Notes under the pieces: generated by a model
Database searches by the model: none
What the model was told of the DNA's origin: nothing
What the model saw: only the letters and a program-made list of their open reading frames with translations
Assembly (NCBI RefSeq): GCF_003182255.1
Contig: NZ_QGTQ01000016.1
Span: forward strand, 87,836-111,835
Direction: 5' to 3'
Length of the DNA stretch: 24,000 nt
Source of the DNA: Paenibacillus cellulosilyticus
GTDB lineage: Bacteria; Bacillota; Bacilli; Paenibacillales; Paenibacillaceae
Translations under genes and position numbers: made by a program
In this document: positions 2,042 to 18,275 of the stretch, in pieces
Position numbering within the stretch: position 1 is the stretch's first letter
Layout of the letters: each line of letters starts with the position of its first letter

Positions 2042-2656
2042 TTAACTCGGACGCTCGATGACGAATACGTCGCCGAGCTTTGCGTAGAAGTCGCCCGCTA
2101 AGCGGCTGATCGGCTGCAATGCGACTGGATCGATATGGCCTTTGCCGTCGTAGACGGACTCCGAGACGTGGTACTGGACGATTCGGCCAATGAGCAGATC
2201 GGCTGCTGGCGCGCCTTCTAAGCCGCCAACCGGAATAGCCTGCTCGAGCACGCATTCCATGCGGATATGCGCCTCTTCAATGCCCGGCACAGCGATTCGA
2301 TCGCTCGCGACCGGCGTCAGTCCCGTCAGCGTTACTTCACTTTCGTCCGGCGGCAGGCTCGCTGCTGTCCGATTGACCTGCTCCAAGTAGGAGCTGTCGG
2401 TAATGTGGACGACCATCTCGCCACGCGCGATCGCATTGCGGGAAGTGTCCTTGCGCTCTCCTGCCTTGCGCTGAACAGAAACTGCAATCATCGGAGGGTT
2501 CGCCGTTACGATCGTGAAGTAGCTGAATGGCGCGGCGTTCAGTACGCCGTCCTCGGACAGCGTACTGACAAAGGCAATCGGCCTCGGGATGATGCTGCCA
2601 ATCAGCAGCTTGTAGTTGTCCCGTTCGGTTATCGCAGTCGGATCAATCGCTATCAT
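2042..2656 (-). CDS. Flavin reductase family protein (FMN-binding split-barrel domain)
   Basis: 204-aa ORF with the typical N-terminal pattern NYKLLIGSIIPRPIAFVSTLSEDGVLNAAPFSYF. Strong RBS GAGGAGGAAG. Lies 17 nt downstream of the esterase gene, so likely the same operon. Confidence 0.85.
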   Translation of the reverse strand: MIAIDPTAITERDNYKLLIGSIIPRPIAFVSTLSEDGVLNAAPFSYFTIVTANPPMIAVSVQRKAGERKDTSRNAIARGEMVVHITDSSYLEQVNRTAASLPPDESEVTLTGLTPVASDRIAVPGIEEAHIRMECVLEQAIPVGGLEGAPAADLLIGRIVQYHVSESVYDGKGHIDPVALQPISRLAGDFYAKLGDVFVIERPS

Positions 2657-2673
2657 CGGACTTCCTCCTCTTC

Positions 2674-3285
2674 CTATTTCACGAAATTGAGCTTAAACCA
2701 TTGCGCTGCCGCTTCCGCTTCCGTCTGTGTAAGACGATGGCCCGCACGTTCCCAGTGAACATCCACCAAGGCGCCTGCTTTGTCGAACAGCTCCTCCAGC
2801 TCCTCCGTCTCTACCGGCGAGCAGATCGGATCGTTCTCCCCTGCGCCGATGAAGATCGGCACGCCGGCCAGATCCGGCAGCTTCACGCCGCGGCGCGGCA
2901 CCATCGGATGGTGCAGAATCGCGCCTCTCAGCGATCTTGCGTAGTGGAACAACAGGCTGCCTGCAATGTTGGCGCCGTTCGAGTAACCGACGGCAACAAA
3001 GTTGCTGCGATCAAGCCCATAATCAGCTGCCGCTTGATCGAGGAAATCGTAGAGCTCCGTCGTGCGGAATACGAGATCCTCCTCGTCAAAGACGCCTTCC
3101 GCGATGCGGCGGAAAAATCGCGGCATCCCATTTTCAAGCACATTGCCTCTTACGCTTAATATCGATGATGTCGGCGAGATCAGCTCCGCGAGTCCGAGCA
3201 AATCCTGCTCGGTACCACCCGTACCGTGAAACATCACGAGTACGGGCGCTTTAGAATCCGAACCTTGCTTGAAAATATGCTTCAT
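2674..3285 (-). CDS. Phospholipase/carboxylesterase-family alpha/beta hydrolase (MhqD-like)
   Basis: 203-aa ORF with VLVMFHGTGGTEQD, the nucleophile elbow GYSNGAN, and C-terminal acid and His (ENDP, AGH). The start overlaps the dioxygenase stop (TAATG at 3285). Confidence 0.85.
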   Translation of the reverse strand: MKHIFKQGSDSKAPVLVMFHGTGGTEQDLLGLAELISPTSSILSVRGNVLENGMPRFFRRIAEGVFDEEDLVFRTTELYDFLDQAAADYGLDRSNFVAVGYSNGANIAGSLLFHYARSLRGAILHHPMVPRRGVKLPDLAGVPIFIGAGENDPICSPVETEELEELFDKAGALVDVHWERAGHRLTQTEAEAAAQWFKLNFVK

Positions 3286-13388: not shown

Positions 13389-14192
13389 CTACTGAGGGAG
13401 GACAAGCCCCCACACCTCTTGCAAAGCCTCAATGAACAAGCGATCCAGCCGTTCATCGATAGTCGCATCCGCCGACTTCAATGCATGTGCACGCTTCTCC
13501 AATGAGTCCAGCTCCTTGGCGATATACGCGTGAATCGCCTCTTGACGCGGCTCGTAGTCGAGCTCTTCGCCTGCCTTCTTCCGCTCGAGCAGCTGCTGCA
13601 CCTCGTTCCACAGCGCATCTTCTCTTGGGAGCAGCCGCTCGACCAGCTCATCGAACTTTATCGGCGGCATCTCGCCGAACTGCTCAATCCATTCGCAGGC
13701 GAGAATCGGACGCAGAACGTAGAAGTACTTCTTGATCTTCACCTGATCGCCTTGCAGGTACGTCCGGAAGTTGCCGCGCGCCATATGCAAGTAATGGAAC
13801 ATGCATGCCTTCGGCGAGAAAGCTTGCGATGACAGCGCACGAAGCTGGTCTGCCGTGCGGTATGGCTCGGCGTAACGGATTGGCGATTGCAGCCATTCAA
13901 GCAGCGGCGGATTCGATTTGCGATACAAGCCAAGTGCCTTCCGCAAATCCCAACCGCTAATGTCGAGCTGATCGCTGATCGGACGCTCGATGACGTCGCG
14001 TTTGTCCTGAATCGATAAATACCACTCCGGCCGCCGAACGTAGAGGAACCTCACATCATAGTCGCTGTCCTGCGACGGGAAGCCCCATGCGCGGCTGCCG
14101 GATTCGCATGCATATAGGATGCGAACCTGCTCCTCCTGCTCGATCCGCTTCAATTGTTCCGTTATCTCATTCCGTATCGCGTCTACTGTCAT
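13389..14192 (-). CDS. Pol-beta-superfamily nucleotidyltransferase (PF10127/RlaP-like, YcgL-like)
   Basis: 267-aa ORF with the NTase motif ACESGSRAWGFPSQDSDYDVRFLY (G-S ... D-x-D) and the family-typical helical C-terminal region. RBS GGAGGGAC. The start overlaps the last 26 nt of the upstream TROVE gene. Confidence 0.85.
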   Translation of the reverse strand: MTVDAIRNEITEQLKRIEQEEQVRILYACESGSRAWGFPSQDSDYDVRFLYVRRPEWYLSIQDKRDVIERPISDQLDISGWDLRKALGLYRKSNPPLLEWLQSPIRYAEPYRTADQLRALSSQAFSPKACMFHYLHMARGNFRTYLQGDQVKIKKYFYVLRPILACEWIEQFGEMPPIKFDELVERLLPREDALWNEVQQLLERKKAGEELDYEPRQEAIHAYIAKELDSLEKRAHALKSADATIDERLDRLFIEALQEVWGLVLPQ

Positions 14193-15708: not shown

Positions 15709-15749
15709 CGGTTTAACCCCCTTTTATATACGAACGTCGATTGTTATGA

Positions 15750-15850
15750 AAAAAAGAAAGAGCGAGGAAATGTGCGAGAAGGCGGCGCGGAGCACTCGCC
15801 CGCAATAAACGTTGGATAGAAGTAGCCCTCTCTAGCGCCTCGCTCTATGC
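15750..15850 (-). ncRNA. Y-RNA-like structured RNA 2 (YrlB-like; no tRNA module), ending in a U-tract
   Basis: Read on the minus strand. Basal stem AUAGAGCGAGG (complement of 15838-15848) pairs with CCUCGCUCUUU (complement of 15757-15767). Then an asymmetric internal loop CGCUA / GCACAUUU, then a second stem GAGAGGGC / GCCUUCUC (8 bp, one G-U). The 3' end is CUUUCUUUUUUUC. The architecture and loop sequences are paralogous to the adjacent RNA at 15861-16001. Confidence 0.55.
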
Positions 15851-15860
15851 TGCTTATGTA

Positions 15861-16001
15861 ACAATCGTTGAGGAAAATGGCGGAAAGGCACAAGCTGCTC
15901 TACCAACTGAGCTACTCTGCCTTGCGGCAAAGGTTGGACTCGAACCAACGACAAGCCGATCTACAGTCGAAGTAACCCTTCCTAGCGCCTCAACGATCTG
16001 T
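15861..16001 (-). ncRNA. YrlA-like Y RNA with a circularly permuted tRNA-like domain
   Basis: Read on the minus strand. A 10-bp perfect basal stem AUCGUUGAGG (complement of 15988-15997) pairs with CCUCAACGAU (complement of 15864-15873). Inside are the internal loop CGCUA / GCCAUUUU and the stem GGAAGG / CCUUUCC. The apical module is T arm GUUGG-UUCGAGU-CCAAC (15933-15949), a 7-bp acceptor-like stem CUUUGCC / GGCAGAG closed by a GCAA tetraloop (15915-15932), UA, and D arm GCUC-AGUUGGUA-GAGC (15897-15912). It lies directly upstream of rsr on the same strand. Confidence 0.7.
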
Positions 16002-16120
16002 GCGGCCTCCGCTTTACAGCCTCGGCTTCACAACCTGATTTTCACCGAAATCCACCCCTGCGAACAGGGCAAAAGTATGGCGAAGAATAAAAAGTTTCCA
16101 TTTTCCCCAGTTGACGGGCT

Positions 16121-16129
16121 TGTTACAAT
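16121..16129 (+). promoter_or_regulatory. Candidate extended -10 promoter for the WYL operon
   Basis: TGTTACAAT (TGn + TACAAT) lies 46 nt upstream of the GTG at 16175. There is no good -35 at 17-nt spacing; a TTGACG is present only 7 nt upstream. It overlaps the dyad TTGT-N-ACAA (16120-16128). Confidence 0.3.
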
Positions 16130-16174
16130 GGAGCCATTACCCTTGTGATCGGACAAGATGAGGAGGAATGGACA

Positions 16175-17500
16175 GTGGCTCGAGAAAGCTTTGACAAAGA
16201 GGTGCAGCTGCTGCGGCTGCTCGCGCTCGCAGGCGGTGCATATAACCGGCAGCAGTTCGCGGCGCGGCTGGGCATCTCCGTACATACCTACGACAAAACG
16301 ATGCGCTACCTGAAGGAGATGCAAAGCTCGCTCAAGCAGCCGCTGTCCCCCGAGCAGGAGACCGAACTGTCAGACGGGCTTCGCTACAACTACTACGAAT
16401 CGGCCGACCCGCTGCTGTTATTCCTCTTCCGCGCCAAGTCGCTGAAGGAGTCGGAGAGCGTCCGGCTGTCCACGATATTAACTGTGCTGCAGGATCAGTC
16501 ACTGACCGCAAAAGAGCTGCTCGACTGCTGCAGCGAGACGATGTCTGCGGACTATCCAAGCCCTGACGAGAAGACGATCCGTGGCGATCTCAAATATCTT
16601 GAGGAGGTCGGCGTTATCGTCCGTACCTCAGACAGCCGCCCTTTCCGCTACACCGCAGCTATCGGACTGATTAATGAGCTGTCGGATGACGAGCTGATTG
16701 ATCTCTATGATTACGTCGATGTGATGGCGAATACGCAGGTTCCGTCTGTACAAGGCTACTTGCTTCGCGACACGCTGAAGAAGGCTTTGCGCAAGCGCGG
16801 CTTCGATCCATCGGCAGCCGAGACGCATCTGTACAAGTACCACTACCACTCGCGCATTCTTGACGAGGCGCATCTACATACGATTCACCGTGCGATTCGG
16901 GAGCGGCGACGGATTGATTTTGTATACCATGCACCTCGGAAGGGGAAAAACTACGCAGCTAAGAACACGAATCCACTGTTCGAACGCGAGGAGCAAAGTC
17001 AAACGCAGCCCCTCCTCCCGCTTCGTGTTATCTACGATCATCAATATGGACGCTGGTACCTCATCGGCCATACGCAGCGGAACGCGATTGCGAAATTCCG
17101 GATGGAAGGCATTACGCAGATCGAGGAAGGCGAGGTGGTTTCGGAGGAAGAGTTCAATCGGCACTTGAACACGGTTGAGCGTCAGATGGAGCGAAGCTGG
17201 GTTGTGGATACGCTGCGAACGATTAAGGTTGTGGCGAGATTTTTCAATCCGGAGCGACCTGGATCGAACTTCATTCGGGAACGTGTGGAGGCGCAGGGCC
17301 AATGGGGTTCGATCACGGAGGAATCCGACGAGTCTTTCCTCTATACGATTATGGTCAATGGCATCTACGAGATTAAGCCGTGGCTGCGGAGCTTCGGTTC
17401 CAGCTGTGAGGTGCTTGAGCCCGCATGGCTGCGCAAGGAGTTCATTGCGGAGTGGAAGGAGATTCAGGCCCATTATGAACCCGTTCGAAAAAATATTTAA
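16175..17500 (+). CDS. WYL-domain transcriptional regulator (HTH - second wHTH-like region - WYL - C-terminal WCX-like domain), PafB/PafC-like
   Basis: N-terminal HTH (YNRQQFAARLGISVHTYDKTMRYLKEM) and a second wHTH-like segment (LTAKELLDCC ... IRGDLKYLEEVGVIVRT). WYL signature LRVIYDHQYGRWYLIGHTQRNAIAKFRMEGI, plus a C-terminal extension domain. I prefer the GTG start at 16175 (AGGAGG at 16161-16166, 8-nt spacing). The ORF-track GTG at 16145 is an in-frame alternative. Confidence 0.85.
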   Translation: MARESFDKEVQLLRLLALAGGAYNRQQFAARLGISVHTYDKTMRYLKEMQSSLKQPLSPEQETELSDGLRYNYYESADPLLLFLFRAKSLKESESVRLSTILTVLQDQSLTAKELLDCCSETMSADYPSPDEKTIRGDLKYLEEVGVIVRTSDSRPFRYTAAIGLINELSDDELIDLYDYVDVMANTQVPSVQGYLLRDTLKKALRKRGFDPSAAETHLYKYHYHSRILDEAHLHTIHRAIRERRRIDFVYHAPRKGKNYAAKNTNPLFEREEQSQTQPLLPLRVIYDHQYGRWYLIGHTQRNAIAKFRMEGITQIEEGEVVSEEEFNRHLNTVERQMERSWVVDTLRTIKVVARFFNPERPGSNFIRERVEAQGQWGSITEESDESFLYTIMVNGIYEIKPWLRSFGSSCEVLEPAWLRKEFIAEWKEIQAHYEPVRKNI

Positions 17501-18275
17501 CTACCAAATGCTGTCGCGGCTCGACGAGTCGAACGCATTCGCCTTGACTACGCAGGAGCGCGCATGGCTGAAGATGCTGCTGTCTCACCAATCAGCGGAA
17601 AATGCCTTTACCTCGGATACGCTCGGCAAGCTGCGCGGACTGCTGGCGGACGAAGCCGCAGCCGACATTCGCGACATCATTATCGAGAAAGCGAAGAGCC
17701 GGGAGAAGCATGTGTACCACCCGATGCTGCGCTCGCTCCGCCGCATCATTGCGCAAGGCTTCGGCAGCTATATTACGTATCGGCTCAAGCATGGCGGCAT
17801 GCGGAATCAATTCGGCCTTCCGCTGAAGCTCGAATACAGCATGGTGAAACGGGAGTGGTATCTGCTCTGGTACAGCCCGCGAAGCCGCATGCTGATGGCG
17901 ACGAAGCTGGACAATCTCATCGCAGCTGACGCGGTCGAGCTGCACGCCGATCGTGCAGCATCGCTTCACCGTCGTGCGTCCGAGCTGCTCCACAATCGCA
18001 AGCAGCAAGCGGTTATTGAAGTCGTTCGCATGTATAACGAAGAGCTGTCGCGCATCCTTTATGCGTTCTCGTGCTTTGACAAGACGGTCAGCTATGACGA
18101 ACAGGCCGATCTGTATCATATCCACGTCACATATCCTGCCGACGAAGGCGAATATTTGCTGTCCAAAATCCGTTTTCTCGGCCTCCGAGTACGCGTTGCA
18201 GAAGGCAACTACCTGAAGCGGCGGATGTGGGAGTCCTCATCGAAGGCCATTGCGCGGTATGGAATAGGGGAATAA
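17475..18275 (+). CDS. WYL-domain protein without a recognisable N-terminal HTH (partner subunit, PafC-like)
   Basis: The in-frame ATG at 17475 (MNPFEKIFNYQ) overlaps the upstream gene's end by 26 nt. WYL signature ITYRLKHGGMRNQFGLPLKLEYSMVKREWYLLWYSPRS, plus a C-terminal WCX-like region (YHIHVTYPADEGEYLLSKIRFLGLRVRV). The first 100 codons of the ORF-track frame (from 17175) run inside the upstream gene and look non-coding (Arg/Ser-rich). Confidence 0.8.
   Translation: MNPFEKIFNYQMLSRLDESNAFALTTQERAWLKMLLSHQSAENAFTSDTLGKLRGLLADEAAADIRDIIIEKAKSREKHVYHPMLRSLRRIIAQGFGSYITYRLKHGGMRNQFGLPLKLEYSMVKREWYLLWYSPRSRMLMATKLDNLIAADAVELHADRAASLHRRASELLHNRKQQAVIEVVRMYNEELSRILYAFSCFDKTVSYDEQADLYHIHVTYPADEGEYLLSKIRFLGLRVRVAEGNYLKRRMWESSSKAIARYGIGE

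Follow-up and report, generated by a model that had tools for sequence, protein, structure and literature searches.

The window analysed here is a stretch of 24,000 nt from Paenibacillus cellulosilyticus (contig NZ_QGTQ01000016.1, positions 87,836 to 111,835), and the region of interest is the gap between rsr, which encodes a Ro60/TROVE protein, and the divergent gene of a WYL-domain regulator. A sequence-only reading had placed two tandem Y-RNA-like genes in this gap, one of them with a circularly permuted transfer RNA (tRNA) mimic at its apex. It had also described the gap as 430 nt long and free of credible open reading frames. The gap in fact comprises 466 nt (15709-16174), while the second part of that description holds: the gene calls of the source contig show no gene inside, and the only open reading frames overlapping the proposed RNAs are mechanical ones of 40-49 aa. 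All strings quoted in that reading were found on the minus strand at the places given. The gap contains two conserved, strand-specific RNA structures linked to rsr, here called module 1 and module 2, of which module 1 is homologous to the bacterial Y RNA YrlA (Table 1).

Table 1. Features of the rsr-WYL region, in coordinates of the window.
Feature	Position	Strand	Evidence
rlaP, RNA-repair-associated Pol-beta nucleotidyltransferase	13389-14192	-	Pfam RlaP, E 8e-101
rsr (Ro60/TROVE + vWA), 513 aa	14167-15708	-	Pfam TROVE, E 4e-20; vWA_Ro60, E 4e-8
U-rich tract CUUUUUUUCAU, directly after the basal stem of module 2	15746-15756	-	Direct reading
Module 2, second Y-RNA-like gene, ~92 nt	15757-15848	-	Covariance model; covariation
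Module 1, YrlA-type Y RNA, ~136 nt	15863-15998	-	Rfam YrlA match; homologues; covariation
Module 1 platform, 3' strand: CCUUUCC, 8-nt loop GCCAUUUU, CCUCAACGAUU	15863-15888	-	Internal loop 5x8, like that of the Rfam YrlA consensus
UA linker, D arm GCUC-AGUUGGUA-GAGC, then AGCU	15893-15914	-	D stem 99% paired
Acceptor-like stem CUUUGCC/GGCAGAG, 7 bp, closed by a GCAA loop	15915-15932	-	Covariation
T arm GUUGG-UUCGAGU-CCAAC	15933-15949	-	tRNA-type T-loop UUCGAGU; covariation
UUAC (YUAY motif), then V hairpin CGA-CUGUAGA-UCG	15957-15975	-	V-stem pair covaries
Module 1 platform, 5' strand: GAUCGUUGAGG, CGCUA, GGAAGGG	15976-15998	-	Strings verified; basal pairs covary
Conserved upstream motif CGCCATACTTTTGCCCTGTTCG, 22 nt	16061-16082	-	One match in the window vs 0.01 expected
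HTH-WYL-WCX regulator gene, 441 aa, start GTG 16175	16175-17500	+	Pfam WYL and WCX; source contig gene call
Gene of a 266-aa protein, directly after the WYL regulator	17475-18275	+	No Pfam or NCBIfam match

Module 1 lies on the strand of rsr and ends 155 nt upstream of its ATG. Its ends pair in a basal stem of 11 bp between GAUCGUUGAGG (15998-15988) and CCUCAACGAU (15873-15864) plus U15863, with a G-U as the outermost pair; including U15863, the 3' strand reads CCUCAACGAUU. This stem is followed by an asymmetric 5x8-nt internal loop, in which CGCUA (15987-15983) faces GCCAUUUU (15881-15874), and by a second stem of 7 bp, GGAAGGG (15982-15976) with CCUUUCC (15888-15882). The 5' strand of this platform is the presumed Rsr-binding strand. 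Above the platform, the UUAC tetranucleotide is followed by a V hairpin of 3 bp with a 7-nt loop (C15969-G15957), which precedes the T arm and had been overlooked in the sequence-only reading. Both the YUAY motif and the V arm are known from YrlA (PMC4201824).

The rest of the apex is a tRNA in permuted order, with the T arm before the D arm (D arm proper at 15912-15897) and a closed acceptor-like stem between them. This is what the sequence-only reading had proposed; its strings were verified and the helices are backed by covariation. The likeness of YrlA to a circularly permuted tRNA whose acceptor stem is closed has itself been noted in the literature (bioRxiv 10.1101/312249). The tRNA-core nucleotides named as conserved in the crystal-structure paper (bioRxiv 10.1101/312249) can be read directly in module 1. 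They are the UA linker, GG in the D loop, UUCGAGU as the T loop and, where the variable linker ends, the pyrimidine C15950. The nucleotides required for modification by TruB and DusA and for the L shape are present as well, namely U-U-C-R-A in the T loop, GG in the D loop, and U8/A9. No conserved CCA precursor was seen in the acceptor-hairpin loop of module 1. As the equivalent of an anticodon stem, a 4-bp helix GGCU/AGCU had been suggested. Two of its pairs, G15956-C15894 and C15955-G15895, indeed covary, and U15954-A15896 is a possible third pair in the window that was left out of the alignment scoring. G15957, however, sits in the V hairpin, and we rejected the 4-bp form in favour of two covarying pairs and a separate V hairpin.

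Module 2 repeats the platform with a different apex. Its basal stem, AUAGAGCGAGG (15848-15838) with CCUCGCUCUUU (15767-15757), forms 10 of 11 pairs, with one U-U mismatch. The internal loop again consists of CGCUA, here facing GCACAUUU, and the second stem is formed by GAGAGGGC (15832-15825) and GCCUUCUC (15783-15776). The apex is a small hairpin, GCGG (15803-15800) with CCGC (15790-15787), without a T, D or acceptor arm. The 23-nt box common to both modules, GAGGCGNNNGNNNGGGNNNCTTC, occurs exactly twice in the 24 kb, once at each module, against an expectation of 0.02 copies, and none of 100 shuffles reaches two. The second stems differ by two compensatory swaps (GGAAGGG/CCUUUCC vs GAGAGGG/CCUUCUC). 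These swaps and the covariation described below agree with the compensatory changes in the helices that had been noticed by eye. Module 2 is a paralogue of module 1 built on the same stem/internal-loop/stem platform.

In a permissive Rfam scan, module 1 matches YrlA (RF02553) with 51.3 bits and an E value of 1.1e-10 over model positions 1-114 of 114, a search with YrlA-type Y RNA models being one of the checks proposed in the sequence-only reading. The alignment has the architecture of the family consensus, with a stem of at least 6 bp, the 5-nt 5' loop, a 7-bp stem, YUA, the T arm, the acceptor hairpin, UA, the D arm, a short closing stem and the 8-nt 3' loop. Module 1 has an insertion of 15 nt relative to the model, which is the V hairpin, an element described for many YrlA RNAs by Chen et al. 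(PMC4201824). The discoverers of YrlA accepted Infernal matches with E < 5e-5 within 4 kb of a Ro60 orthologue and on the same strand (PMC4201824, Methods). With the Rfam model as a proxy for the authors' model, module 1 falls within these limits; arithmetically rescaled to a one-family search of a 7-Mb genome, its E value is ~3e-10. The distance and strand relative to the Ro60 orthologue likewise agree in all related loci. The arm order of YrlA, (V), T, closed acceptor stem-loop, UA and D with tRNA-type loops, is also that of module 1.

For a comparative analysis, 80 loci were retrieved via Rsr homologues from Paenibacillus, Cohnella, Brevibacillus and Gorillibacterium, with Rsr proteins 66-88% identical to that of the window. 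L001 and L002 are the two nearest relatives of the window. Module 1 is recognisable in ~69 of the 80 loci. When 67 distinct sequences were aligned with MAFFT, RNAalifold independently predicted the basal, second, T, acceptor and D helices, with compensatory changes in 17 of 32 predicted pairs. Scored with the full YrlA-type structure, including the V hairpin and the 2-bp anticodon-like stem, 96.7% of the alignment cells are paired compared with 40-54% when slid. Double changes occur at 20 of 37 pairs, and none of 500 shuffles reaches the observed scores. The changes are spread over the helices. A basal-stem pair alternates between C-G and U-A (34/24) and a second-stem pair between A-U, C-G and U-A (46/11/7). 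In the V stem one of three pairs covaries (A-U/C-G, 40/23), and both pairs of the anticodon-like stem do so (one of them G-C/A-U, 39/26). The T arm is paired in 100% of cells, and two of its five pairs covary (U-A/C-G). All six scored pairs of the acceptor-like stem show compensatory changes, and 60 of the 67 sequences retain the seventh. No variation is seen in the D stem.

For module 2, a MAFFT alignment of 57 homologues has 93.8% of cells paired versus 48-60% when slid, double changes at 8 of 19 pairs, and a covariation score of 0.23 versus 0.13. Covariation, which the sequence-only reading had named as a test, is thus clearly positive for both basal helices and both second stems. We further built a covariance model, R1, from 50 module 2 homologues, leaving out the window, L001 and L002. 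Its only matches within the 24-kb window are module 2, at 63.1 bits (E 6e-13), and module 1, at 46.5 bits (E 4e-9). The match to module 1 shows that the modules have one common platform. Over the 80 loci R1 gives 203 matches, and all 203 are on the rsr strand and upstream of rsr; each locus has 2-4 modules.

A further conserved element precedes the RNAs. The upstream motif has the consensus CG[TC][AC]ATACTTnnGCC[AC]TGTTCG and lies on the rsr strand, 60-85 nt before the first Y RNA module. Its core is exact in 74 of the 80 related loci and found in 78 with mismatches allowed (examples at 2478-2499 of L025 and 2657-2678 of L018; L081 in the motif table is the window's own contig). The subtype found in the window is followed by AAAATCAGGTTGTGAAGCCGAG, which is conserved in Cohnella too. 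Judged by its sequence and position, the upstream motif is probably a promoter or operator element of the Y RNA-rsr transcript, and it could plausibly be the operator of the divergent WYL regulator. By-eye fits of -35/-10 hexamers, a LexA (Cheo) box, a sigma-54 promoter and a PafBC-type motif to this block were all rejected, as none was consistent across the loci.

Taken together, the gap between rsr and the WYL gene very likely holds genes for two non-coding Y RNAs on the strand of rsr; they probably form the 5' portion of a transcript that continues through rsr and rlaP. For module 1 the best name is a divergent YrlA, and for module 2 a second Y RNA specific to the lineage. The observation made in the sequence-only reading is confirmed, and its interpretation is supported. 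As bacteria with Ro60 normally carry such RNAs, the find was to be expected, and the arrangement fits the published pattern of at least two Y RNAs per species, one of them tRNA-like. From this likeness we infer that the RNAs are transcribed, processed and bound by Rsr, and that they have a downstream role. The 5' and 3' ends of each pair as a long stem, broken by the conserved 5x8-nt internal loop and continued by a second helix of 7-8 bp. The platform with the 5' strand GAGGCG-NNN-G-NNN-GGG-NUNCUUC may be the site of Rsr (Ro60), by analogy with characterised Y RNAs. The apex, which differs between the two RNAs, would form the effector end. In module 1 it is a complete mimic of the YrlA type, a circularly permuted tRNA whose ends exit via the anticodon side, and this domain might stabilise the RNA or recruit a tRNA-binding factor. 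Module 2, with only its small hairpin, could give rise to a second Rsr ribonucleoprotein that has another partner or serves in gating. If the RNAs work like Yrn1 of Deinococcus, they might tether Rsr to another factor, PNPase for example, and gate its ring. The setting would be an RNA-damage response in which RlaP takes part and which the divergent WYL regulator probably controls. These roles are drawn from work on other Y RNAs (PMC4201824; bioRxiv 10.1101/312249; PMC7790460).

Several observations weigh against this assignment. Module 1 misses the Rfam gathering score of 69, and nine relatives that were scanned permissively reach 37-49 bits, so that the clade including the window spans 37-51 bits with no member at the cut-off. 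The published 5' motif GNCGAAN0-1G, proposed as the contact of Rsr, is not matched literally; both modules read GGCGCUAG, which has the same G-N-C-G...G spacing with CU instead of AA and is displaced ~3-4 nt in 3' direction relative to the helices in the Rfam alignment. The clade consensus at this place is GAGGCG-NNN-G. In consensus scans neither a sigma-70-type promoter nor a terminator was detected for the RNAs, and the U-tract was not called either. Compared with shuffles the folding energies are unimpressive (z = -0.8 for module 1 and z = -2.2 for module 2). For module 1 the comparative fold is energetically reasonable at -45.6 kcal/mol, compared with -50.8 kcal/mol for the minimum free energy fold, which has a competing hairpin in place of the T arm. 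As the T arm is lost in this way, we dropped single-sequence folding as evidence, and the support for the modules rests on homology and covariation, not on thermodynamics. Finally, the window Rsr scores 97.9 bits with the NCBIfam Rsr model, whose equivalog cut-off of 900 is far above; it is a divergent Ro60.

The sequence-only reading had also likened the U-tract behind module 2 to a stem-plus-oligoU 3' end. The tract is present in L001 and L002 and absent from the other loci in which the module 2 class precedes rsr. It is common only to the window and its two closest relatives, and we rejected it as a 3'-end signal of the family.

An alternative that retains the structures would make both of them cis-acting 5'-leader elements of the rsr mRNA, such as attenuator, stability or processing signals, instead of free trans-acting RNAs. 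Their place on the rsr strand directly upstream of the gene, with ~48 nt from module 2 to the ATG, would suit a leader, as would the failure of the scans to detect a separate promoter or terminator and the U-tract of the window, at which partial termination could occur. That tract is not conserved, however, and module 1 is homologous to YrlA, a proven Rsr-bound RNA (PMC4201824). The number and order of modules also vary, with 2-4 per locus, and in Cohnella a module is parted from rsr by a whole tRNA array, an arrangement more in keeping with genes than with a fixed leader. We regard a leader function as unlikely, and a pure cis leader as less likely than Y RNA genes. The two are compatible in part, as the Y RNAs of Mycobacterium smegmatis are processed from an rsr precursor.

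That module 1 instead joins the T arm of one tRNA gene to the D arm of the next, in a pair that is decayed or in tandem, and that module 2 is something unrelated, is most improbable of all. The Rfam tRNA model gives a weak partial match to module 1 (20.1 bits, E 0.14), and tandem tRNAs are known to produce false YrlA matches, against which PMC4201824 warns. An example was encountered at 2358-2460 (+) of L003, where two adjacent genuine tRNAs give a YrlA match of 32.6 bits from the T arm of one and the D arm of the other. The 51 bits of module 1 are well above this artefact level, though. The tRNA match misses the cut-off of 29, and ARAGORN finds no tRNA or tmRNA in the window; with its acceptor stem a closed hairpin, module 1 is outside the definition of a tRNA, a cloverleaf that has free acceptor ends and an anticodon arm. 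Between the T and D arms lies a closed hairpin of 7 bp in which every scored pair covaries, as would not be the case for a tRNA-tRNA spacer, and the whole element is enclosed by two covarying long-range helices that it has in common with module 2. Hardly more probable is it that the repeated boxes act at the level of DNA, as WYL operator repeats or a repetitive intergenic element without RNA structure. One 23-nt box does occur twice, 150 nt apart, beside a regulator gene. Yet compensatory changes at positions 90-135 nt apart keep Watson-Crick or G-U pairing, and G-U pairs are meaningful only in the RNA of this strand. The confinement of all R1 matches to one strand argues in the same direction, and the separate conserved motif further upstream is a better operator candidate. 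The covarying closed hairpin and its enclosing helices refute the tRNA reading, and the DNA-level one is refuted by the long-range compensatory changes, the G-U pairs and the full strand bias.

Among characterised systems, YrlA of Salmonella Typhimurium and M. smegmatis (RF02553; Chen et al. 2014, PMC4201824; PDB 6CU1, bioRxiv 10.1101/312249) is the closest, as module 1 matches it over the whole model: the long 5'/3' stem, the 5x8 loop, the 7-bp second stem, YUAY, V, T, closed acceptor, UA and D elements and the short anticodon-like stem are all found, beside rsr and on its strand. Module 1 lies upstream of rsr like the YrlA of M. smegmatis, whereas that of Salmonella lies downstream. The M. 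smegmatis RNA and module 1 also have an acceptor stem of 7 bp, the feature behind the cleavage by RNase P and addition of CCA for which the M. smegmatis RNA is the only known case among YrlA RNAs. Differences concern the score, which lies below the cut-off here and throughout the Paenibacillaceae/Brevibacillus clade, and the 5' motif, with GGCGCUAG instead of GNCGAAN0-1G. Both platform strands are conserved in the present family, whereas just the 5' strand can be recognised in Salmonella and M. smegmatis. The neighbours differ too, with RlaP and a WYL regulator at module 1 and RtcB, RtcA and RtcR at YrlA.

Module 2 resembles YrlB of S. Typhimurium and M. smegmatis and Yrn2 of Deinococcus radiodurans (PMC4201824) in being a shorter second RNA beside a tRNA-like one, with the same presumed Rsr-binding stem and without a full tRNA mimic. 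In M. smegmatis, YrlA and YrlB stand in tandem upstream of rsr, as modules 1 and 2 do here, and a single precursor yields both (PMC4201824). For the published YrlB RNAs no homologue could be detected beyond their own species, and they "eluded bioinformatic discovery", whereas the module 2 family is found in >55 species with covariation to back it and, unlike YrlB, is visibly paralogous to the local YrlA. The YrlB of M. smegmatis has a T arm, which module 2 does not.

With Yrn1 of D. radiodurans and the metazoan Y RNAs (RF00019) the window RNAs have a modular logic in common, in which a terminal stem (presumed for the window RNAs) serves to bind Ro60/Rsr and the apex is the effector module, and all are encoded near rsr. 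Neither Yrn1 nor the Y_RNA model RF00019 has a sequence or model match in the window. The tRNA-like arms of Yrn1 come in a different order than those of module 1. Metazoan Y RNAs lack a tRNA-like domain, and they owe their oligo-U tail to Pol III termination; the U-tract here is not conserved. The rsr-yrlBA-rtcBA operon under RtcR (Hughes et al. 2020, PMC7790460) likewise combines Y RNAs and Rsr with an RNA-end-repair enzyme and a divergent ligand-sensing regulator. There the enzymes are RtcB and RtcA and the regulator is a sigma-54 CARF activator; here we find RlaP and an HTH-WYL-WCX protein with a small WYL-like partner.

The product of rsr is the presumed protein partner of both modules. 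The start of rlaP overlaps the end of rsr by 26 nt (14167-14192, minus strand), an arrangement that suggests translational coupling. RlaP is matched by tblastn downstream of rsr in 56 of the 80 related loci. Neither RtcB nor RtcA was found in the 24-kb window, where the Rsr/Y RNA locus pairs with RlaP alone. In 58 of the 80 loci the WYL gene points away from the RNA genes, as it does here. The gene that follows overlaps it by 26 nt, and its position is conserved in 47 loci; the 266-aa product contains a WYL-like REWYLLWY stretch (LPLKLEYSMVKREWYLLWY), which weakly resembles the WYL motif of the regulator (E 0.1). Judged by their order and this resemblance, the regulator and the 266-aa protein may be a partner pair similar to PafB/PafC. 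A tblastn hint had pointed to a longer open reading frame (17175-18275) with an extended overlap with the WYL gene. We rejected it, as its first 100 codons look out-of-frame; the real start is ATG 17475, in agreement with the gene call of the source contig. The remaining content of the window is ordinary chromosomal genes.

The related loci reveal more module types than the window. Class 1 is YrlA-like. Class 2 corresponds to module 2 and has no tRNA arm; most species have two apical hairpins in it, the window, L001 and L002 one. The apical parts vary between the window modules and between the classes across the related loci, while both modules have the platform by which a Y RNA is defined. 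Class 3 consists of the platform, a V hairpin and a T arm (GGCAGGUUCGACUCCUGC), without an acceptor or D arm, and resembles the YrlB of M. smegmatis. It lies directly upstream of rsr in most related loci (e.g. 2858-2980 of L003 and 2833-2946 of L025) and is absent from the window, L001 and L002, which have classes 1 and 2 only. Class 4, with the same platform, is located after the WYL-proximal motif and before a tRNA array in Cohnella and relatives (961-1090 of L011, 250-380 of L014, 249-383 of L015, 1049-1179 of L009 and 1044-1169 of L017). Loci with a tRNA array have up to four modules.

The alignments made here (A2, A3 and A4, the last being the third class) yield covariation-supported models of the YrlA-like RNA and the second class, and they extend to the third, which occurs in the relatives only. 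With the Rfam curated thresholds nothing is reported in the window, and only tRNAs in 16 related loci that were scanned. Both genes go unannotated by pipelines because they score under the cut-off, which was set high owing to spurious tandem-tRNA matches and thereby also excludes the real YrlA-like RNAs of the Paenibacillaceae/Brevibacillus clade. Standard annotation thus misses these genes, and the rsr of these Firmicutes seems to be without an RNA partner. The biology itself is as the field expects, with at least two Y RNAs beside rsr, one of them tRNA-like, in an RNA-repair setting; this is useful, not surprising. The added value lies in the models and in the recognition of a conserved Y RNA family with several classes in this clade. 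No paper on Y RNAs in Paenibacillus or relatives was found in the library searched; the species list of Chen et al. 2014 may already include one.

Until now, second Y RNAs had come to light through immunoprecipitation alone, each in a single species. With a family that is conserved and can be aligned, the platform nucleotides read by Rsr could be mapped and partners of the apical domains that are not tRNA-like could be sought. A wider and rather doubtful proposal is that the Paenibacillaceae and Brevibacillus have a paralogous Y RNA family with up to four classes per locus (a full tRNA mimic, one without any tRNA element, one with a T arm only and one ahead of tRNA arrays) on one Rsr-binding platform unlike GNCGAA. 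Together with co-located spare tRNA arrays, RlaP and a WYL-type sensor, this family might form a regulon that answers tRNA damage or anticodon nucleases. In it, RNase P could open the YrlA with its 7-bp acceptor, which might then receive CCA like its M. smegmatis counterpart and serve as a decoy or repair substrate. If true, this family of "second Y RNAs" would be the first to be traceable, and open to modelling, across species.

The tRNA arrays comprise 3-8 genes on the rsr strand, between the WYL gene and the Y RNAs. Those Cohnella loci that were scanned have them, as do Gorillibacterium massiliense (L008) and Paenibacillus glycinis (L010), but none is present in the window. Sites are, all on the plus strand, 2222-2483 of L003, 2096-2649 of L007, 1049-1670 of L014, 1141-1852 of L015 and 1633-1953 of L008. 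The arrays contain tRNAs for His, Gln, Lys, Glu, Asp, Pro, Asn, Trp and Ile, and two copies of the upstream motif bracket each array. This set is rich in tRNAs that are targets of anticodon nucleases elsewhere. The arrangement suggests that the arrays provide spare tRNAs co-regulated with the RNA-repair genes. A different insertion is seen in Paenibacillus wulumuqiensis (L078, ~2650-2790, plus strand), in which ~16 tandem GAAGTA repeats lie between the YrlA-like module and rsr, replacing the second and third modules.

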